From Actinomycetota bacterium (GTDB lineage: Bacteria; Actinomycetota; UBA4738; HRBIN12), in contig DASTBT010000052.1 in the NCBI GenBank assembly GCA_035711865.1, forward strand, positions 1 through 61,449: a stretch of DNA of 61,449 nt, read 5' to 3'. The notes below the pieces were generated by a model. That model made no database searches, was not told the origin of the DNA, and saw only the letters and a list, made by a program, of their open reading frames with translations. The position numbers were made by a program, and so were the translations under genes. Positions 28,513 to 42,012 of this stretch are shown here, in pieces. Position 1 is the stretch's first letter. Each line of letters opens with the position of its first letter.

Positions 28513-28627
28513 CGTGAACATGTGTTCGACGCCCGGGTCTCCCGGGTCACGACGGCGTCGAAGGGATGGCAGGGTCGTTGAGCCGCACCGGATCGGCACG
28601 GCGGCTCGGGGCGGGTGCCGGTCGGGT

Positions 28628-29110
28628 CTAGATCAGGAAGGATTCCCAGCCCGGCTCGAGATGGCCGAGCGTGAGGTGGAAGCCGTCACGCGGCGCATAG
28701 GGCTGGCGTCGCAGTCGGAAGCCGGCCTCGGCGGGCGTGCGGTCCTCCTTCTTCGCGTTGCACCGGCGGCAGGCCGCGACGACATTCTCCCATGCGTGTA
28801 TGCCCCCTCGGGACCGTGGCAGGACGTGATCGAGGTTCTCGGCCGTGGACCCGCAGTACTGACAGGCCCACTCGTCGCGAGCGAAGACCGCCCTGCGGGT
28901 GAGGGGCGCGTGCGGCCGGTAGGGCACGCGGACGTATCGCCGCAGGCGCACGACCGAGGGCGCCTCGAGCACGAGATGCTCCGAGTGGAAGATCATGCCG
29001 TTGGAGAGCACCACCTCGGCCTTCTCCTTCAGCACGAGCACCACTGCACGGCGCGCCGGCACGACCGCCAGCGGCAGGTCGGTCGCGTTGAGGACGAGCG
29101 CACGTCCCAT
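28628..29110 (-). CDS. HNH endonuclease (McrA-like)
   Basis: ATG at 29110 (MGRALVLNATDLPL...) inside ORF 28628..29155. HNH/zinc motif CQYCG...NLDHVLPRSRGG...NVVAACRRCNAKK. Confidence 0.85.
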   Translation of the reverse strand: MGRALVLNATDLPLAVVPARRAVVLVLKEKAEVVLSNGMIFHSEHLVLEAPSVVRLRRYVRVPYRPHAPLTRRAVFARDEWACQYCGSTAENLDHVLPRSRGGIHAWENVVAACRRCNAKKEDRTPAEAGFRLRRQPYAPRDGFHLTLGHLEPGWESFLI

Positions 29111-29395
29111 GGCGGCAAGTCTACCGGCGGCTCGCCGCGCAGGAGGTCTCGACACGCAGAATCACAACGGTGTAATCTCTCGAGCGGCGGCCGGGCCGCA
29201 CGCGATGCCTGGAGTTGCGAAGGGGCCGCGCGGGGCGTCCGCGGATCCCGGCCCGGTCGCCGACACCCATCGCCGTCGATCGCGGCCTCCCTCCCGGTCG
29301 CGGAGGCGCGGGACGGACCTCTGTCTTCCACGGCATCTGGCGTACCATGACCGGGTTGCCCCTGTCGGAGCCGCGCGGCGAGTCGGAGGTGTTGT

Positions 29396-34567: not shown

Positions 34568-34936
34568 CTAGCCGTCGTCGGAGGATGCGGGCGGCCGGAA
34601 CCGTGACGCGAGCCGTCCGATGATGCCCGTGAACGAGCCGCCGTCGGATTGCATCGCGCGGATCTGATCGCGGCCGAGTTGCCCGAGGTACCGGTAGATC
34701 AGCATGGCCGAGCCGATCATCATGATGAACCCGACGGCCGCGATCCAGGCGCTGACCACGAACAGCAGCAGGAGCACGCACCCGAGCACGAACGCGATCG
34801 CGGCGAGGCGGATGCGCCGGGCGAGGTGGGTGTACAGGTCGGTACGGCCCACCTGCTCGACGAGCTTCGGATCGTCCTCGGCGAGCCGGCGCTCGATCTC
34901 GTCGAGGATGCGCTGTTCGTGTTCACTCAGGGGCAT
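34568..34936 (-). CDS. DUF3040 family membrane protein
   Basis: ATG at 34936 with GGAGGAA 5 nt upstream; 122 aa. Typical MPLSEHEQRILDEIERRLAEDDPKL N-terminus followed by two TM helices. Confidence 0.8.
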   Translation of the reverse strand: MPLSEHEQRILDEIERRLAEDDPKLVEQVGRTDLYTHLARRIRLAAIAFVLGCVLLLLFVVSAWIAAVGFIMMIGSAMLIYRYLGQLGRDQIRAMQSDGGSFTGIIGRLASRFRPPASSDDG

Positions 34937-34994
34937 CCGGCTTCCTCCGGCGAGGGCTCCTTCGGTCCGTGGCGGGGTTCCCCCGACCCTCCGA

Positions 34995-36242
34995 TTATAG
35001 GGAGGCTTCCGGACCTGGGAACCCAGGCGCCGGGTCGGGCGGGGAGCGCCGGGTGCGATCGAGCAACGACGCCGGGGTCGCCGCGCCGCGGCCGAAGCGG
35101 TGCTCGATGCGGTCGACGGCCCGTTCGACGTCGCCCCAACGCTCCCCGCGAAGTAAAACGAGCTGCTCCGCACCGGCGGGCACCAACCCGCTTGCCTGCA
35201 CGCCGAGCAGGCGCACCCGGTGCCGTTCCCCCGGCAGGTTCCGGTAGAGCTCGGAGACCGTCTGGTAGAGGTCCGCACCGACGTCGGTCGCATCGGCCAG
35301 GGTCTTCGAACGCGTGAGCGTGGTGAACGTGGCGAGGCGGACCTTCAACGTCGCCGTGCGCGCCTGGTAACCGTCGGCGCGGAGCCTCGATGCGACCCGG
35401 CCCGAGAGCGCGAGCAACTCGCGGAGCAGCGTCTCGTCGTCGTCGAGATCGTGGTCGAAGGTCTCCTCGTGACCGACCGACTTCGGCGCCTCGTAAGGCA
35501 CCACGTCGCGAGCGTCGATGCCGTGGGAGAGCTGCGACAGGTGCCGGGCGTGCTGCTCGCCGAGCAGGCGGGCGAGGATCGGCTCGGGCGTGGCCGCGAG
35601 GTCGCCGATCGTCCGCACGCCCAAGCGCGAGAGCACCTCGCCGGTCTTCTCCCCCACACCCCACAGGCGGCCCACCGGCAACGGCTCGAGGAACGCGAGC
35701 ACGTCGTCGGCGGGCACGACGAGCTCGCCGTTCGGTTTGCAGTGGTCGCTCGCGAGCTTGGCCACGAACTTCGTCGGCGCCACGCCGACCGAGCACGTGA
35801 CCCCCACCTCACGTTCGACCTCGGCCCTGATGCGCGCCGCGATCGCACGTGGGGTCCCGAACAGCATCGACGCCCCGCCCACGTCGAGGAAGGCCTCATC
35901 GAGCGAGATGGGCTCGACGAGAGGGGTGTGAGCGAGCAACACCTCGCGGAAGCGGTTCGAATGAGCTTGGTACGCCTCGAAGTCGGGGGGCAGGAATATG
36001 CCGTCGGGGCAGAGCCTGCGAGCGCGCACGGTCGGCATCGCCGAGCGCACCCCGTATGCACGGGCCTCGTAGGACGCCGAGCTCACGACGCCGCGCCCCC
36101 CGACCCCGCCGACGATCACCGGCTTCCCGGCGAGCGCCGGGTCCTTCAGCGCCTCGACCGAGGCGTAGAACGCGTCGAGGTCGGCGTGAAGGATCGGTTC
36201 GGCTGCTCGTTCGCTCGGCAGTGCCCCCGGTGGATCGGTCAT
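34995..36242 (-). CDS. dinB: DNA polymerase IV (Y-family, catalytic residues intact)
   Basis: 415-aa ORF. Blocks: HADLDAFYASVE, SSASYEARAYGVRSAMP and SLDEAFLDV. Starts 7 nt after the dnaE2 stop. Confidence 0.94.
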   Translation of the reverse strand: MTDPPGALPSERAAEPILHADLDAFYASVEALKDPALAGKPVIVGGVGGRGVVSSASYEARAYGVRSAMPTVRARRLCPDGIFLPPDFEAYQAHSNRFREVLLAHTPLVEPISLDEAFLDVGGASMLFGTPRAIAARIRAEVEREVGVTCSVGVAPTKFVAKLASDHCKPNGELVVPADDVLAFLEPLPVGRLWGVGEKTGEVLSRLGVRTIGDLAATPEPILARLLGEQHARHLSQLSHGIDARDVVPYEAPKSVGHEETFDHDLDDDETLLRELLALSGRVASRLRADGYQARTATLKVRLATFTTLTRSKTLADATDVGADLYQTVSELYRNLPGERHRVRLLGVQASGLVPAGAEQLVLLRGERWGDVERAVDRIEHRFGRGAATPASLLDRTRRSPPDPAPGFPGPEASL

Positions 36243-36249
36243 GTCGTCA

Positions 36250-39200
36250 TCATCCCGCGGAGCCGGGGCTCGCGTGCCAGAGGGCTCGCGGCCCGGCGCC
36301 GGGGGCGGGAGCGTTCGAGCCCGGAGCCGCCCAGCCGCGGAGCGCCTCGCGCAACCGACCCTCGCCCCGGGCTCGGTGCAGGACCGAGAGGTCCCAGACC
36401 TCCTCGGCCACCACGCTCACCCCTGCGACCCCGGTTCGGCGGAGCTCCCCCGCGACCGCGAGCGCGTATCCGTGGAACACCGTCTTCGCGACCCTGGGCT
36501 GCACCGACTCGAACACCGTGACCTCGACCGGGCCGGTCGCGTCGTCGAGCGTGAGGAAGATGATGCGCTGGCCGCTGCGGATCGCCGGAGTCTGCGAGGC
36601 CACCTTCACGCCGGCGACGATCACCCCCGAGCCACCGCGCGTGCGGCGCAGATCCTTCGCCCGCGTCACTTCGAGGTCGGCGAGGACGGGCTCGAAGAAA
36701 CTCACGATGTGCCGGGTGGCGTCGAGTCCCATCACCTCGATCTCGGCGCGCACGACCTCGGCATCGGAGTAGTCCTTGAAGCGATGCCCCGCTGCGGGGT
36801 CGGCACCCATGGCGAGGGTGAGCTGGTCGCCTTCCCGCAGGGGTTCTGCGGTCATCGCCACGTACAGGTGTCGCCGGCGGGCCGGCTCGAGCGCGTCGAA
36901 CGCGCCTGCGTGGGCGAGCGCCTCGGTCACCGGCCGGCTCACGGTCGTGCGCCGCATGAAGTCGCCCACGTCGCGGAACGCGCGGTCGGCGCGCGCCGTC
37001 TGGATCGATCGGATCTCGGCGTCGCTGATGCCGTGCACGTCCTGGAGGCCGAGCCGGATACCGAAGGAGCCGGCGGTGCCGCCCTCACCCCCTGGCACCG
37101 GCTCCACCACGTACTCCGGCTCGCTCGCGTTCACGTCGAGCGGCAGGATCGCGATGCCGTGACGCCGCGCGTCGTCGAGGATCGTGCGACGCGGGTACAT
37201 GCCGGGGTCGTGGGTCAACAGGCCCGCGTACAGGTGCGCCGGGTAGTGCGCCTTCAGCCATGCGCTCTGGTAGGTCGGCACCGCGAACGCCGCCGCGTGC
37301 GCTTTGCAGAACCCGAACGAGGCGAACTGGGTCACCCCGTGCCACACCTTCACCGCCGCGTCGCGGTCCACGCCCCGGGCCGCCGCGCGCTCCACGAAAT
37401 CGGCCTCGAAGCCCGGCAGCATCTCCTCGCGGTCGAGGTGGCGCCGGATGTGGTCGGCGTAGGTCTCGGTGTACCCGGCGATCGCCGCGAGCGCCCGGAT
37501 CACCTGCTCGTGGAAGACGATCACCCCGTAGGTCTCCTGCAGCGGCCCGCGCAGGCCCGGATGGATGTAGCTCGGCCGCTCGAACGCCGATCGCCGCCGC
37601 AAGTACGGCGTGATCATGTCGGATTTCACCGGCCCGGGCCGGAACAGCGAGATGTCGACGATCAGATCTTCCCAGCGGTCGGGCTGCAGCTTCTGCAGCA
37701 GCTCGCGTTGGCCGGGCGACTCGATCTGGAAGCACCCGAGCGTGTCGGAGGCGCGGACGAGCTCGAACGTGGCGGGGTCGTCGAGCGCGATGCGGTCGAG
37801 GTCGACCTTCTCCCCCGTGGTGCGCGCGATCTCGTCGAGCGCGTGGCGCATCGAGCTCAGCATGCGCACGCCGAGGATGTCGAGCTTCAGGTAGCCGAGC
37901 AGCTCGACATCGTCCTTGTCGGCCTGGACCATTCGATGGCCGTTCGCGCTGCGTTCCAGCGGCACCCGCTCGACCAGGTCGTGGCTCGCGAGCACGATGC
38001 CGCACGGATGCAGCGCGATGTGCCGCGGGAACCCGGCCACCTTCTCCGCGACCCGGATCAACCGCTCCATCTGCTCGAAGCGCAGGTTGATGCCCGCCAG
38101 CTCTGGCAGGCGGTCGATCGCCTCGCGCAGATGCCTGGCCGAGATGTGCGGGAACGACGTCGCGACGACGCCGACCTCGACCTCGGGCAGCCCGAGCGCC
38201 TTGCCCACCTCGCGGATCGCCGAACGTGCCAGGTACGTGTCGATCATCGCGACGCAGCCCGCGCGCTCGGTGCCGTGACGGCCGAGGATCATGTCGTAGA
38301 CGTCTTCCCGCCTCGCCGACTCCACATCGATGTCGATGTCGGGCAGGTCCTCGCGCATCGGGTTCATGAACCGTTCGAACGACAGGTCGTGACGGAGCGC
38401 GTCGACGTCGGAGATGCCGGTCAGGTAGCACACGAGCGAGCCCGCCGCGCTCCCCCGGCACGCGGCGCGGATGCCCATCGCCTTCACGTCGGCGACGATG
38501 TCGGCCACGGTGAGGAAGTACGCCGCGAACCCCATGCGCCGGATCATCGAGAGCTCGTGGTGCAGCCGATCGCGCAGACGTTCGTCGACGTGCATCTCGC
38601 GGTCGTACACGCCGCGCCAGCACCGTTCGGCGAGCACGGCGTCGGCGCCGCGGCCTTGCGGCGTCGGGAAGTCGGGGAAGTGGATGCGCTCGAGCCCGAG
38701 GTCGTATCGGCACATGTCCGCGACGGCCAGGGTTCCGTCGCACAGATCGGGCCGCTCGGCGAAGAGCGCTCGCATCTCGGCTGCGGGCTTCAACCAACCC
38801 TCGGCGTTGCGGCGGGTCACGTTCGTCTCGGCGAGCGGCACGATGCGCCGTATGCACTCGAGCACGTCGGCCACGAACGCGTCGGCGGGCTCCAGGTACC
38901 GGACGGGGTTCGTCGCGACGGCGCGCACCCCGACGCGCTCGGCCAGGCGCAGCATCGACCTGATCTCGTGGGACGAGCCGCGCTCGAACCGGTGCTCGAC
39001 GCCGACGAGCAGGCGGTCGCGCCCGAACGCCTCGCGGAAGGGATCGAGCAGCCGCGCGGCGTGGTCGACGCGGCCGGCGACCGCCGCCCGCCCCGGGTGC
39101 GACCCTGGCCCGGCGATCGCGACGAGACCTGCCGCGTGCGCGCATATCTGCACCGCGTCGACCCACGGATCGCCGCGGTCGCCGAGCATGTGGGCGTCGG

Positions 39201-39531
39201 TGATCAGCCGGCAGAGGTTGGCGTAGCCGGTGTCGTCGGACGCGAGCAGCACGACGTGGGCATCGTGTTCGCTCCCCCGCCCACCCGGCGTGGGGGTTCG
39301 CACCGTGACCGATGCGCCGAGGATCGGCCGCACTCCCTCGGCCTCGCACGCTCGCACGAACCGCGCGGCGCCGTAGAGTCCGTCGCGGTCGGTCATCGCC
39401 ACGGTCGGCTCGTTCGTTCCGGCTGCTCGGCCGAGCACCCCCGCGCGGGACACGAGCTGCTCCGGCGTGAACGCGCCTTCCTTCAAGGAGAAGCACGAGC
39501 GCACATCGAGGTGCACGAACGATGCCGACAT
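36250..39531 (-). CDS. dnaE2: Error-prone DNA polymerase DnaE2 (ImuC)
   Basis: 1093-aa ORF. N-terminus MSASFVHLDVRSCFSLKEGAFTPEQLV and a pol III alpha core (FGFCKAHAAAFA). Size and lack of a C-terminal tau/beta-binding extension are typical of DnaE2 rather than DnaE1. Confidence 0.95.
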   Translation of the reverse strand: MSASFVHLDVRSCFSLKEGAFTPEQLVSRAGVLGRAAGTNEPTVAMTDRDGLYGAARFVRACEAEGVRPILGASVTVRTPTPGGRGSEHDAHVVLLASDDTGYANLCRLITDAHMLGDRGDPWVDAVQICAHAAGLVAIAGPGSHPGRAAVAGRVDHAARLLDPFREAFGRDRLLVGVEHRFERGSSHEIRSMLRLAERVGVRAVATNPVRYLEPADAFVADVLECIRRIVPLAETNVTRRNAEGWLKPAAEMRALFAERPDLCDGTLAVADMCRYDLGLERIHFPDFPTPQGRGADAVLAERCWRGVYDREMHVDERLRDRLHHELSMIRRMGFAAYFLTVADIVADVKAMGIRAACRGSAAGSLVCYLTGISDVDALRHDLSFERFMNPMREDLPDIDIDVESARREDVYDMILGRHGTERAGCVAMIDTYLARSAIREVGKALGLPEVEVGVVATSFPHISARHLREAIDRLPELAGINLRFEQMERLIRVAEKVAGFPRHIALHPCGIVLASHDLVERVPLERSANGHRMVQADKDDVELLGYLKLDILGVRMLSSMRHALDEIARTTGEKVDLDRIALDDPATFELVRASDTLGCFQIESPGQRELLQKLQPDRWEDLIVDISLFRPGPVKSDMITPYLRRRSAFERPSYIHPGLRGPLQETYGVIVFHEQVIRALAAIAGYTETYADHIRRHLDREEMLPGFEADFVERAAARGVDRDAAVKVWHGVTQFASFGFCKAHAAAFAVPTYQSAWLKAHYPAHLYAGLLTHDPGMYPRRTILDDARRHGIAILPLDVNASEPEYVVEPVPGGEGGTAGSFGIRLGLQDVHGISDAEIRSIQTARADRAFRDVGDFMRRTTVSRPVTEALAHAGAFDALEPARRRHLYVAMTAEPLREGDQLTLAMGADPAAGHRFKDYSDAEVVRAEIEVMGLDATRHIVSFFEPVLADLEVTRAKDLRRTRGGSGVIVAGVKVASQTPAIRSGQRIIFLTLDDATGPVEVTVFESVQPRVAKTVFHGYALAVAGELRRTGVAGVSVVAEEVWDLSVLHRARGEGRLREALRGWAAPGSNAPAPGAGPRALWHASPGSAG

Positions 39532-39584
39532 CGGCTACCCAGACCTGGGGAAGCGATGACGACCTTCGTCGACCGAGACGCCCC

Positions 39585-40274
39585 TCAGCGCTGCCAGATC
39601 GCGGGGTCGTGGGCGAAATGAACGCGGACGGGGTCGAGCCCCCGTAGGCGATCGACCGACCGTGCGTACGCGTCGGGATCTGGTGAGCTCGTTCGTCCCG
39701 ATGCCTCGGAGCCCTCGGCCCCTAGCCACTCGGCGCGGGACTGTACCGCCTGACCGGCGAGCACGATCGCACCGCCGGGTGCGTCGACGACCAACGACTG
39801 ATGCCCGGCGGTATGTCCCGGCGTCGGCACCAGCCGCATGCCCGGCGCGACCTCGGTCTCGCCGTCGAGGAGCTCGTAGGTGAGCCCCGGCACGTCGATC
39901 CACTCGGGAACCGTGTAGCCGGGCTCGTGGACCTTGGCCCACTCCGCGCGCTGCACGAAGATCGGCATGCCTCGGAGCCGGGCGTTCTGCCCCGAGTGGT
40001 CGAAGTGCAGGTGGCAGTTGGCCGCGCCGGTCACGTCGGCGAGCGAGATGCCGGCTTCCTCGAGCGCATCGTCGACCGGACGGACCCGTGGGGAGAACCT
40101 CGTCTCGACCTCGGCGTCGCCGAAGCCGGCGCCGTTGTCGAACAGGAAGATCCCGTCGGGATGCTCGACCGCGTGGCCGTACGACGGCCACCATTCCATC
40201 GCCAGGAGCTCCCGTTCCGCATCTGGCAGCCGCAGCTCGGACACCAGGAACGGGATGACTCGCACGTCGCTCAC
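39585..40274 (-). CDS. Metallo-beta-lactamase-fold hydrolase (AHL-lactonase-like)
   Basis: 229-aa ORF starting with GTG. Blocks: HLHFDHSGQ (HxHxDH), TPGHTAGH, and late His/Asp ligands HFAHD. Confidence 0.88.
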   Translation of the reverse strand: MSDVRVIPFLVSELRLPDAERELLAMEWWPSYGHAVEHPDGIFLFDNGAGFGDAEVETRFSPRVRPVDDALEEAGISLADVTGAANCHLHFDHSGQNARLRGMPIFVQRAEWAKVHEPGYTVPEWIDVPGLTYELLDGETEVAPGMRLVPTPGHTAGHQSLVVDAPGGAIVLAGQAVQSRAEWLGAEGSEASGRTSSPDPDAYARSVDRLRGLDPVRVHFAHDPAIWQR

Positions 40275-40290
40275 GGCACCACGCTACCTT

Positions 40291-40362
40291 CATGCATGCG
40301 CTACCGCTTCGCTGCATGAGCGCGTGCATGCATGCGCTACCGCTTCGCTGCTTGAGCGCGTG
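40291..40362. repeat. Tandem direct repeat, 2 x 36 bp (35/36 identical)
   Basis: 40291-40326 is catgcatgcgctaccgcttcgctgcAtgagcgcgtg. 40327-40362 is identical except A to T at unit position 26. Each unit opens with the palindrome CATGCATG. A partial extra copy (acgctacc) lies at 40281-40288. The repeat sits between the 86-aa gene stop (40365) and the MBL start (40274). Confidence 0.95.
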
Positions 40363-40364
40363 CG

Positions 40365-40625
40365 CTAGTCCCACAAGCGCTCCATGTGCCAGCGGTCCCT
40401 GCCGCGGTCGAAGTAGAGATCCCAGACCGCGCCGCCGCGCGCTTCCACGCGCCAGTACTCGCGATCGCGGCCGTCGGACCACCATCGGCCCTCGATCTTC
40501 CACCGGCCGATCACGTCGGCGACCTCGTAGCGGCGGCCCCGCCACTCGAACGCGCTCGGCATGCCGGTGTCACGTTCGACCCTGATCTCCTCGTCGAATC
40601 GCTTCGTCACCGTGACGGTCCTCAC
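40365..40625 (-). CDS. 86-aa Trp/Arg-rich protein resembling the C-terminal domain of ImuB (DUF6504-like)
   Basis: ORF starting with GTG. Sequence: FEWRGRRYEVADVIGRWKIEGRWWSDGRDREYWRVEARGGAVWDLYFDRGRDRWHMERLWD. First gene downstream of the LexA box. Family assignment is from memory of ImuB C-termini (WW...R.Y[YW]RVE...W.L[FY].D...RW.[LM]...[FW]) and has not been searched. Confidence 0.6.
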   Translation of the reverse strand: MRTVTVTKRFDEEIRVERDTGMPSAFEWRGRRYEVADVIGRWKIEGRWWSDGRDREYWRVEARGGAVWDLYFDRGRDRWHMERLWD

Positions 40626-40653
40626 AGTCGAAAGGGTCGTGCCCGTTCATGAA

Positions 40654-40669
40654 TCGAACGTATGTTCGA
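40654..40669. promoter_or_regulatory. LexA operator (SOS box)
   Basis: TCGAAC-GTAT-GTTCGA is a perfect 6+4+6 palindrome matching the actinobacterial/Gram-positive consensus TCGAAC-N4-GTTCGA. It lies 29 nt upstream of the 86-aa gene start. Confidence 0.75.
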
Positions 40670-40679
40670 GCGGAGGACG

Positions 40680-40709
40680 AATGTACGCCCGGGTTCCGAC
40701 ATCCGTCAA
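40680..40709 (-). promoter_or_regulatory. Candidate SOS-regulated promoter
   Basis: Reading the minus strand: TTGACG (40709-40704), 18 nt, TACATT (40685-40680). The LexA box begins 10 nt downstream of the -10 element. Confidence 0.45.
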
Positions 40710-40746
40710 GGCGGGTCGGGGCGAGGAGAGGCCTATCATCTGGAGC

Positions 40747-42012
40747 ATGACCACCGTGGCCGATCCGAACGAGCAGCTCACGCCCACCGCCCTCCCGACC
40801 TCCACCGAGCAGCAGATCGAGCTCGTCGACCACTACTCCGCGCACAACTACCACCCGCTGCCCGTCGTGGTCGCCGAGGCCGAGGGGGCGTGGGTCACCG
40901 ACGTCGAGGGCAAGCGCTATCTCGACATGCTGGCCGCCTACTCCGCGCTCAACTTCGGCCACCGCCACCCCGACCTGATCGCGGCGGCCCATGCACAGCT
41001 CCACCGGCTCACGCTCACGAGCCGGGCGTTCCACAACGACCGGATGGGGCTGTTCTGCCGGGATCTCGCCGAGCTCTGCGGCATGGAGATGGTGCTGCCG
41101 ATGAACTCGGGTGCCGAGGCGGTCGAGACCGCCGTGAAGACCGCCCGTCGTTGGGGGTACGACGTCAAGGGTGTGCCCGAGGACCGCGCGAAGATCGTCA
41201 CCTGTGAGGGGAACTTCCACGGGCGCACGATCACGATCGTGAGCTTCTCGACCGACCCGAGCGCCAAGGGCGGGTTCGGGCCGTTCACCCCCGGGTTCGA
41301 GACGGTGCCCTACGGCGACACCGAGACGCTCGAGACCGCGCTCGCCGACCCCGACGTGGTCGCGTTCCTCGTCGAGCCGATCCAGGGCGAGGCGGGGGTG
41401 ATCGTGCCGCCCGAGGGGTACCTGCGACGGGCCAGAGAGCTCTGCGACGCGAACCGCGTGCTGCTGATCGCCGACGAGATCCAGTCGGGGCTGGGGCGCA
41501 CCGGTCGCACGTTCGCGTGCGACCACGAGGGGGTCCGCCCAGACGTGTACGTCGTCGGCAAGGCGCTGGGCGGCGGCATCGTGCCCCTGTCGGCGGTCGT
41601 CTCGACCCGCGACGTGCTGGGGGTGTTCCGTCCGGGCGAGCACGGATCGACGTTCGGCGGCAACCCGCTGGCGTCCGCGATCGGCCTCGAGGTGCTGCGG
41701 CTCCTCGGCACGGGCGAGTTCCAGCGACGATCCGACGACCTCGGAAGCGCGTTGATCGCCCGGCTGCGTGCCGAGGCCCCGCCGGGGGCGGTCGTCGAGG
41801 TGCGCGGCAAGGGCTTGTGGGTCGGCATCGAGCTCTCGTCCGAGGCCGCGCCGGCTCGCGAGGTCTGCGAGCGGTTGATGGAGATGGGCGTGCTCGCCAA
41901 GGACACGCACGAGACCACCGTGCGGCTCGCTCCCCCGCTCTGCGTGACGCCGGAGGACCTGGATTGGGCGGCGGACCGGATCCTCACGGCCCTGGCCGAG
42001 CGGCTCGGCTGA
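40747..42012 (+). CDS. rocD: Ornithine aminotransferase
   Basis: ORF 40561..42012. The ATG at 40747 (MTTVADPNEQ...) fits family length. An alternative ATG at 40681 has GGAGG 4 nt upstream. Blocks: HNYHPLP, LNFGHRHP, DEIQSGLGRTG, GKALGGG and STFGGNPLA. Confidence 0.92.
   Translation: MTTVADPNEQLTPTALPTSTEQQIELVDHYSAHNYHPLPVVVAEAEGAWVTDVEGKRYLDMLAAYSALNFGHRHPDLIAAAHAQLHRLTLTSRAFHNDRMGLFCRDLAELCGMEMVLPMNSGAEAVETAVKTARRWGYDVKGVPEDRAKIVTCEGNFHGRTITIVSFSTDPSAKGGFGPFTPGFETVPYGDTETLETALADPDVVAFLVEPIQGEAGVIVPPEGYLRRARELCDANRVLLIADEIQSGLGRTGRTFACDHEGVRPDVYVVGKALGGGIVPLSAVVSTRDVLGVFRPGEHGSTFGGNPLASAIGLEVLRLLGTGEFQRRSDDLGSALIARLRAEAPPGAVVEVRGKGLWVGIELSSEAAPAREVCERLMEMGVLAKDTHETTVRLAPPLCVTPEDLDWAADRILTALAERLG

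Follow-up and report, generated by a model that had tools for sequence, protein, structure and literature searches.

What kind of mutagenesis operon carries a DnaE2-type polymerase and a Y-family polymerase behind a LexA box, with no imuA and no imuB beside them? The question is raised by a locus at positions 34,995 to 40,709 of a 61,449-bp stretch of DNA (hereafter the window; contig DASTBT010000052.1, assembly GCA_035711865.1, Actinomycetota bacterium), which is a segment of an actinobacterial chromosome. The locus comprises four genes, encoding an 86-aa protein, a metallo-beta-lactamase (MBL)-fold hydrolase, a DnaE2, and a Y-family polymerase (PolY). Judged from its sequence, it is very probably a translesion-synthesis operon on the chromosome, repressed by LexA and belonging to the published DnaE2B-PolY-ImuB-C-RecA type, here in an uncultured high-GC actinobacterium. 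The ImuA-less architecture, which the original prediction thought might be undescribed, has already been published (PMC3765255, PMC6511836, PMC12926913), and the only part that is new relative to the literature is the MBL gene in the operon.

The features of the locus, in the direction of transcription, are as follows.

40709-40680, minus strand: predicted promoter-like pair, TTGACG (-35) and TACATT (-10) separated by an 18-nt spacer, reading into imuB-C.
40654-40669: predicted LexA (SOS) box TCGAACGTATGTTCGA, palindromic, TCGAAC-N4-GTTCGA, a perfect match to the consensus.
40625-40365, minus strand: imuB-C, an 86-aa open reading frame (ORF); Pfam DUF6504.
40291-40363, in the imuB-C/MBL spacer: tandem duplication of a 36-nt unit, 2.0 copies, 97% identical, found by repeat search.
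40274-39585, minus strand: MBL-fold hydrolase, 229 aa; Pfam Lactamase_B.
39531-36250, minus strand: dnaE2, 1093 aa; Pfam PHP, DNA_pol3_alpha, finger, HHH_6, and OB.
36242-34995, minus strand: polY/dinB, 415 aa; Pfam IMS, IMS_HHH, and IMS_C.

All four genes lie on the minus strand, separated in order by gaps of 90, 53, and 7 nt. In a Pfam search, the first two give DUF6504 and Lactamase_B, and the two polymerases give complete DnaE and Y-family domain sets. The sequence has a GC content of 70.7%, and GC at third codon positions (GC3) reaches 0.86-0.92 in the four operon ORF frames, identifying these as the coding frames. An overlapping 336-aa ORF (40545-39535), which covers parts of imuB-C and the MBL gene, is not a gene: its product is rich in Arg and Pro and has no Pfam match, and it lies in the wrong GC3 frame. 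The perfect SOS box of the original prediction is indeed present, and its minus-strand reading, TCGAACATACGTTCGA (40669-40654), starts 10 nt past the end of the -10 hexamer. It is the single perfect TCGAAC-N4-GTTCGA match in the whole window, and 100 dinucleotide-preserving shuffles yielded none (0.00 expected). Both its form and its placement are those of an actinobacterial LexA operator, that is, TCGAAC-N4-GTTCGA at or just after a promoter. Two promoter-like sites, against 0.1 expected, occur in the approximately 6.1 kb from 34800 to 40900, one being the TTGACG-18-TACATT pair, and none falls within the intergenic gaps. A minus-strand scan of the region found no terminator-like site between the operon genes, the sole match being a weak 5-bp stem within the MBL ORF. 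Homologues of imuA, imuB, and recA were sought by tblastn in the window and none was found anywhere in its 61 kb, which agrees with the earlier statement that neither an ImuA-like gene nor a dead full-length ImuB accompanies the polymerases. An Rfam scan of the window returned no RNA family.

The apparently missing ImuB is accounted for in part by the 86-aa protein, which contains eight Trp residues and matches DUF6504 at an E-value of 1e-14. A search of the literature turned up no paper on DUF6504. A profile built from 22 close homologues, when run against 1.84 billion representative proteins, retrieves 1177 relatives, almost all of them stand-alone proteins of 80-130 aa, while two long matches are degenerate Y-family proteins that match at their C-terminus only. 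One of the latter, P0244, starts with an ImuB-like VRIPRFPIGAV where the catalytic DxD motif is expected and carries a RecA-NT-like ALERLRAELGTGAIVR directly before the domain that matches ImuB-C; its 3.5-kb contig holds no informative neighbors. A tblastn search of plasmids with P0244 gave two weak matches only, and these led to two annotated imuA/imuB/dnaE2 reference cassettes, one from Granulicella (annotated recA-like, PolY-family, and error-prone polymerase) and one from Streptomyces (hypothetical, PolY-family, and error-prone polymerase). A 66-sequence DUF6504-family profile aligns with the C-terminus of the Granulicella ImuB over 89 columns, to its last residue, at an hhalign probability of 95.7% (E 1e-8). 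When the Granulicella ImuB is searched against the window by tblastn, residues 116-296 match the polY gene and residues 431-466 match the 86-aa gene at 50% identity. The Pfam DUF6504 model itself reaches only an E-value of 0.055 on the Granulicella ImuB and gives no match on the Streptomyces plasmid ImuB, so custom profiles are needed to link the 86-aa protein to ImuB.

The closest published counterpart is the ImuB-C of Tessaracoccus lapidicaptus (VEP41449), with 36% identity to the 86-aa protein (E 1e-7). An AlphaFold 2 model of the 86-aa protein is all-beta with six strands (mean predicted local distance difference test score, 84); Foldseek found no match to it in the PDB at E <=0.001, and a PDB sequence search gave chance-level matches only. 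This agrees with the published account of ImuB-C, a beta-barrel whose fold is novel (PMC12926913). On these comparisons, the 86-aa protein is the stand-alone C-terminal domain of ImuB (ImuB-C), encoded by a separate gene. Of the two proteins that had been regarded as not normally part of the cassette, the small one is therefore a known component, and the description stands for the MBL protein, which has no place in that literature. The true start of imuB-C is probably the second GTG (40610); GAGGA stands 8 nt before it, and initiation there would give a protein of 81 aa; many homologues start at the matching position with MTKRF or MSKRY.

A side observation concerns the annotation of this family. 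Gene callers have added N-terminal extensions to many ImuB-C homologues (P0008, P0024, P0034, P0086, P0097, P0103, P0107, P0109, and P0119), and these extensions are the translated upstream LexA box (SNIRS, EHMFD, and RTYVRF). As read from the sequences, they are a systematic start-codon annotation error in the ImuB-C family.

The 1093-aa polymerase scores below the cut-off of both relevant NCBIfam models, with 780 bits on the error-prone model (cut-off, 939) and 744 bits on the DnaE model (cut-off, 1002), whereas the two ImuB-linked cassette DnaE2s score 1146 and 1203 bits on the former. The window also encodes a replicative DnaE1 (7496-3888), which scores 1355 bits on the DnaE model and covers positions 3-1140, whereas the alignment of the 1093-aa protein ends at position 1064 of 1146. 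Compared with DnaE1, seven of the nine metal-ligand positions in the PHP domain carry other residues (HLHVHS to HLDVRS, D to E, H to R, E to S, C to P, and DxH to PxR), and the PDIDID polymerase catalytic motif is intact. The best reference match of the N-terminal 400 aa is the T. lapidicaptus DnaE2B (40% identity, 222 bits), against 29-33% identity and 140-146 bits for DnaE2A references. The intermediate NCBIfam scores fit a DnaE2 outside group A and, with the pairwise identities, they are the basis on which we assign the protein to the DnaE2B-type error-prone C-family polymerases.

PolY scores 395 bits on the NCBIfam DNA polymerase IV model, above the 367-bit cut-off, and is 46.5% identical over its full length to the T. 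lapidicaptus PolY. The catalytic motifs DLDAFYASVE and SLDEAFLDV, pointed out in the original prediction, are both present and at least 90% conserved among orthologues, and PolY, encoded downstream of the DnaE2-type gene, is apparently an active Y-family polymerase. Among 60 species, the tail segment AEQLxLLRGERWGDVERAVDRIExRFGRGAATPASLLDR is mostly conserved at 80-90% or more and the last approximately 20 residues are not conserved. The QLxLL in this tail resembles QLVLGL, the clamp motif of Escherichia coli Pol IV. The VERAVDRIExRFGRGAA part is also conserved in the T. lapidicaptus PolY, which has been modeled with RecA (PMC12926913).

All of these components have been described together. 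Aravind (2013) defined ImuB-C and noted that some operons encode it as a stand-alone protein alongside DinB and alongside DnaE2 (PMC3765255), and Timinskas and Venclovas (2019) described variants without ImuA that combine an active or inactive PolY bearing a RecA-NT motif with a stand-alone ImuB-C and/or DnaE2 (PMC6511836). A 2026 study in Nucleic Acids Research divided DnaE2 into groups A, B, and X, with DnaE2B genomes lacking imuA and imuB, and described a "DnaE2B-PolY-ImuBC-RecA" type (also "DnaE2-[ImuB-C]-PolY-RecA") found in Actinobacteria only, with T. lapidicaptus as the example (PMC12926913). There, ImuB-C (VEP41449), DnaE2B (VEP41450), and PolY (VEP41451) have consecutive accessions and form a confident modeled tetramer with RecA, with a published ipTM of about 0.8 (PMC12926913 supplement); RecA has been proposed as the substitute for ImuA in this ImuA-less type. 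The locus in the window has the same three core genes in the same order, an active PolY, a stand-alone ImuB-C, a DnaE2 outside the ImuA/ImuB-linked group, and an actinobacterial host. It differs in that the T. lapidicaptus DnaE2B is longer (1277 aa versus 1093 aa), that the window comes from a different, uncultured group of Actinomycetota, and that the main text of PMC12926913 contains no LexA-box analysis of this type.

Other known systems are further removed. The canonical ImuA(ImuA')-ImuB-DnaE2 cassette of Mycobacterium tuberculosis and Caulobacter crescentus shares the SOS box, the DnaE2-type polymerase, the ImuB-C domain, and the same inferred task of damage-induced mutagenic bypass. However, the window locus has no ImuA or ImuA', and in place of ImuB it has two genes, a catalytically intact PolY and a separate ImuB-C; the sole Y-family gene lies downstream of dnaE2 rather than upstream, and the DnaE2 of the window locus, unlike cassette DnaE2s, scores below the NCBIfam error-prone cut-off. 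The Streptomyces dnaE2-dinB2 pair likewise has an upstream SOS box, with approximately 6-fold induction by UV and methyl methanesulfonate in Streptomyces coelicolor (Tsai et al. 2011; PMC3273824), and the same order of dnaE2 followed by a dinB-type gene. Its DinB2 is an inactivated PolY without ImuB-C (DnaE2B-iPolY-RecA; PMC12926913), whereas here the PolY motifs are intact and ImuB-C leads the operon, which sets the locus apart from that type. The Geobacter sulfurreducens operon lexA-imuB-C-polY, as cited in PMC6511836, resembles it in co-transcribing a stand-alone ImuB-C with an active PolY under DNA-damage control, but that operon includes lexA itself, contains no dnaE2, and belongs to a deltaproteobacterial host.

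By analogy with these systems, DNA damage would give rise to RecA filaments and LexA self-cleavage, and the loss of LexA would free the promoter at 40709-40680, from which a single transcript would span imuB-C, the MBL gene, dnaE2, and polY. ImuB-C, a small beta-barrel made as a separate polypeptide, would fill the role of the ImuB C-terminal domain in the canonical mutasome and may bridge DnaE2's degenerate PHP domain and the Y-family partner. PolY, with its catalytic site kept, would contribute a tail with clamp-binding-like and RecA-N-terminus-like motifs, and a RecA monomer would take the place of ImuA. The resulting complex would carry out error-prone lesion bypass, and the MBL hydrolase would be an accessory encoded within that LexA unit. 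In this scheme, LexA binding, co-transcription, assembly of the complex, recruitment of RecA, and mutagenic activity are taken over from the cited papers.

Conservation across species bears on gene order and regulation. A one-genome-per-species scan identified at least 263 species with a close ImuB-C relative; the comparative counts given here refer to the best 80 loci, all from uncultured Actinomycetota/Actinomycetes metagenome-assembled genomes. The order imuB-C, dnaE2, polY is near universal among them, with few exceptions among the loci whose length allows a judgment, and in many species imuB-C directly abuts dnaE2 with gaps of 4-36 nt. The genes downstream of polY (DUF3040, MerR, and TgpA) are also conserved, indicating that the locus is chromosomal and vertically inherited. 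The MBL gene occurs in 20 of the 80 species. All 80 loci have a LexA box with at most one mismatch in the approximately 55 nt upstream of imuB-C. A second LexA box, counted when it has at most one mismatch and lies within 250 nt upstream of dnaE2, is distributed as follows.

Loci without MBL, at least 700 nt of other genes between imuB-C and dnaE2: 20 of 27 with a second box.
Loci without MBL, same-strand insertions of 300-700 nt: 0 of 7.
Operons with the MBL gene: 0 of 18.

Such a distribution argues that LexA control of dnaE2-polY is under selection and, since no MBL operon has a second box, that the MBL gene lies inside a single LexA-controlled unit. LexA control of the operon is thus well supported by comparison, with evidence that is strong, if indirect.

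Two alternatives to this account of the polymerase genes can be weighed against these data. One is that the LexA box governs the 86-aa gene alone, or the class-III aminotransferase gene with which it shares a divergent intergenic region, while the downstream genes use unregulated promoters of their own. The gaps of 90 and 53 nt are roomy enough for promoters, but neither promoter-like nor terminator-like sites occur in the gaps, and the corresponding junctions shrink to 4-36 nt in relatives. Moreover, dnaE2 acquires its own box in most loci that are split by foreign genes and in no MBL operon, which indicates that the upstream box normally supplies the selected LexA control of dnaE2-polY; we therefore regard separate promoters as very unlikely. 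The other alternative is that the 1093-aa protein is a spare replicative DnaE whose position beside dinB is coincidental. Its near-equal NCBIfam scores would be compatible with this, as would its best plasmid matches, which are genes annotated dnaE at approximately 42% identity, and the 34% identity between its N-terminus and the DnaE1 of the window. However, the window also encodes a genuine DnaE1, most of the PHP ligands are lost, the alignment to the DnaE model stops short, and the best reference match is a published DnaE2B; the gene also lies behind a conserved LexA box, with polY and imuB-C as its constant partners. A spare replicative polymerase is accordingly the least credible of the explanations considered, and scarcely so at all.

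For the assignment to the DnaE2B-PolY-ImuB-C-RecA type, several observations count on the other side. The published system has no MBL gene, which about one-quarter of the species in the lineage of the window possess, and the imuB-C/MBL spacer of 90 nt, lengthened by the 36-nt tandem duplication, exceeds that of any relative. The C-terminus of the Streptomyces plasmid ImuB aligns with the DUF6504-family profile in the same register at an hhalign probability of only 33%, making the link from ImuB-C to actinobacterial-type ImuB weak. When 22 PolY tails are compared with RecA by hhalign, they align in register with RecA residues 5-28 at an E-value of only 0.038, and the match of the tail to Pfam DUF4113 is subthreshold (E 0.097). 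Finally, the lineage is represented by metagenome-assembled genomes alone, and the absence of imuA and imuB is established for the 61-kb window, not for the genome.

What, then, is the MBL gene doing in this operon? Its product keeps the HxHxDH motif and the distal histidines of AiiA-type N-acyl-homoserine lactonases, with strong residue conservation among 120 homologues, and AiiA lactonases are its best matches in both the PDB (E 2e-19) and NCBIfam (NF045699). Unlike them, it sits in an SOS operon and not in a quorum-quenching context. At E 1e-10 or better, its subfamily numbers 3762 homologues. The label of AiiA-type N-acyl-homoserine lactonase was rejected: the NCBIfam score is 95 bits against a cut-off of 375, and, relative to the AiiA sequence, a conserved Gln occupies the position of the bridging Asp191 and the equivalent of Tyr194 is lost. 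In the 20 species that have it, the orthologue lies right after imuB-C and is 63-93% identical to the window protein; DnaE2 identities in the same comparisons are 66-95%, and MBL identity roughly tracks them. A spacer of 10 nt to imuB-C is usual in these relatives, where it never exceeds 52 nt, and it is built of similar "GCGCTCAAGCAGC..GGTAGCG" pieces, which suggests that this sequence is prone to slippage. Three of three MBL homologues sampled from metagenome contigs (73-75% identity) also stand in a DUF6504-MBL-DnaE2-PolY context, and together with the orthologues in 20 of the 80 species they rule out a one-off insertion in this genome. In a DnaE2 neighbor-joining tree, MBL-bearing operons turn up at no fewer than seven distinct positions, among them the deepest branch, and are mixed with MBL-less ones. 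This scatter and the tracking of DnaE2 identity suggest that the gene is ancient and often lost, and ancient presence with repeated loss seems more likely than repeated gain. The gene receives no mention in PMC3765255, PMC6511836, or PMC12926913, and a search of the literature yielded nothing relevant on MBL or lactonase genes that belong to LexA regulons or neighbor dnaE2. By its recurrence in these genomes, it is a real, recurrent, undescribed, and dispensable accessory of the operon in this lineage.

Whether the accessory belongs to the polymerase machinery or merely travels with it can be judged from the same distribution. In the original prediction, the small Trp-rich protein and the MBL protein were in effect candidates for new subunits replacing ImuA and ImuB in an undescribed mutasome. 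For the MBL protein, this would be in line with the absence of imuA and imuB from the window, with its constant slot immediately after imuB-C and never with a LexA box of its own, with the operon context of all three sampled homologues, and with the silence of the three papers. For the 86-aa protein the idea is refuted, since this protein, as ImuB-C, belongs to the known components and the architecture without ImuA has been described; as for the MBL gene, it is missing from approximately three-quarters of otherwise identical operons, many of them with imuB-C abutting dnaE2, and it is scattered on the tree, so it is not an obligatory subunit and is ruled out as a core one. Its closest relatives, moreover, are small-molecule lactonases and not nucleases or RecA/ImuA-like proteins. 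A polymerase subunit is unlikely, and the undescribed mutasome as a whole is highly unlikely. A neutral hitch-hiker, by which the imuB-C/dnaE2 junction simply tolerates insertions and the hydrolase is unconnected with DNA damage, deserves more credit and is a real possibility, although we would not call it an even one. The MBL distribution is patchy, and the same slot holds unrelated genes in other species: a family-4-type uracil-DNA glycosylase, a 123-aa membrane protein, a class-III aminotransferase, DUF2630, and PIN/ribbon-helix-helix toxin-antitoxin pairs. Between dnaE2 and polY there is a second such slot, which in 11 species (~14%) contains a same-strand major facilitator superfamily (MFS) transporter of approximately 428 aa. 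Against neutrality stand the persistence of the MBL gene across a divergence that matches DnaE2's own in depth, its fixed position with the typical 10-nt spacer, its presence on the deepest DnaE2 branch, and the strong conservation of its residues, which together point to purifying selection within the LexA unit. Most likely, then, the MBL protein is a small-molecule hydrolase co-induced by damage and not a subunit of the polymerase complex. The stronger claim that it is a selected, damage-induced functional partner of the operon and no passenger is one we hold only tentatively and consider rather doubtful; such a partner could possibly inactivate a lactone- or ester-containing genotoxin (an MFS exporter is also inserted between dnaE2 and polY in some relatives), or possibly act on a damaged nucleotide or nucleic-acid substrate. 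If it were true, the SOS mutasome operon of this lineage would form an undescribed combined "bypass plus detoxify" module.

For the published DnaE2B-PolY-ImuB-C-RecA system, these results remove a false lead, since the missing ImuB is present as a split gene in an architecture already known, and extend the system to a large uncultured lineage of Actinomycetota, a close ImuB-C relative being encoded by at least 263 species representatives. They also add comparative evidence beyond the main text of the earlier papers: the LexA box is invariable and is duplicated before dnaE2 when the operon is broken, which offers indirect but strong support for SOS control of both operon halves. The operon repeatedly carries non-polymerase cargo, with MBL in approximately 25% of species and the MFS transporter in approximately 14%, and this cargo leads to the testable hypothesis that the SOS response is tied to small-molecule detoxification in soil actinobacteria. 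The residual novelty lies in the co-operonic lactonase-like hydrolase and in small-molecule-handling cargo in general.

The remaining observations concern individual loci and the surroundings of the operon. The transporter insertions between dnaE2 and polY are in L010, L024, L028, L037, L042, L049, L052, L069, L079, L083, and L084, and in L028, L037, and L083, which have 1.2-1.3-kb dnaE2-polY gaps, the transporter and the MBL gene occur together. One further locus, L015 (JBBEAY010000059.1), has imuB-C with a LexA box and neither dnaE2 nor polY within 10 kb downstream; it may represent a DnaE2-less ImuB-C context or a rearrangement. In the window, the class-III aminotransferase gene (40747-42012, plus strand) diverges from the intergenic region that contains the SOS box. 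In nine related species, a class-III aminotransferase gene lies downstream of imuB-C and before dnaE2 on the opposite strand, most with a second LexA box just upstream of dnaE2. From these arrangements, the aminotransferase may share LexA control. On the other side of the operon, polY is followed by a DUF3040-family gene (34589-34936, minus strand, 116 aa), which lies inside a longer listed ORF and whose product is 69% identical to the copy in L003. A strong promoter-like site, TTCCCA-16-TATAAT (34994-35021), overlaps the polY stop approximately 58 nt upstream of this gene, which therefore probably has its own promoter.

Beyond the operon and dnaE1, the window holds ftsZ, sepF, divIVA, and mraZ. 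Another LexA-like site, GTGAACATGTGTTCGA (28514-28529), keeps the GAAC-N4-GTTC core intact with two flank mismatches to the consensus. It stands 42 nt upstream of mraZ (28472-28023, minus strand), with which the division/cell-wall cluster opens. Sites with at most two mismatches to the LexA consensus number 22 in the window against 4.3 expected. By its position, GTGAACATGTGTTCGA could link the SOS response to cell-division control, or it could be due to chance. A 175-aa ORF with an HNH-endonuclease domain (28628-29155, minus strand) lies just upstream of mraZ and separates it from the MoxR/DUF58/TgpA genes.

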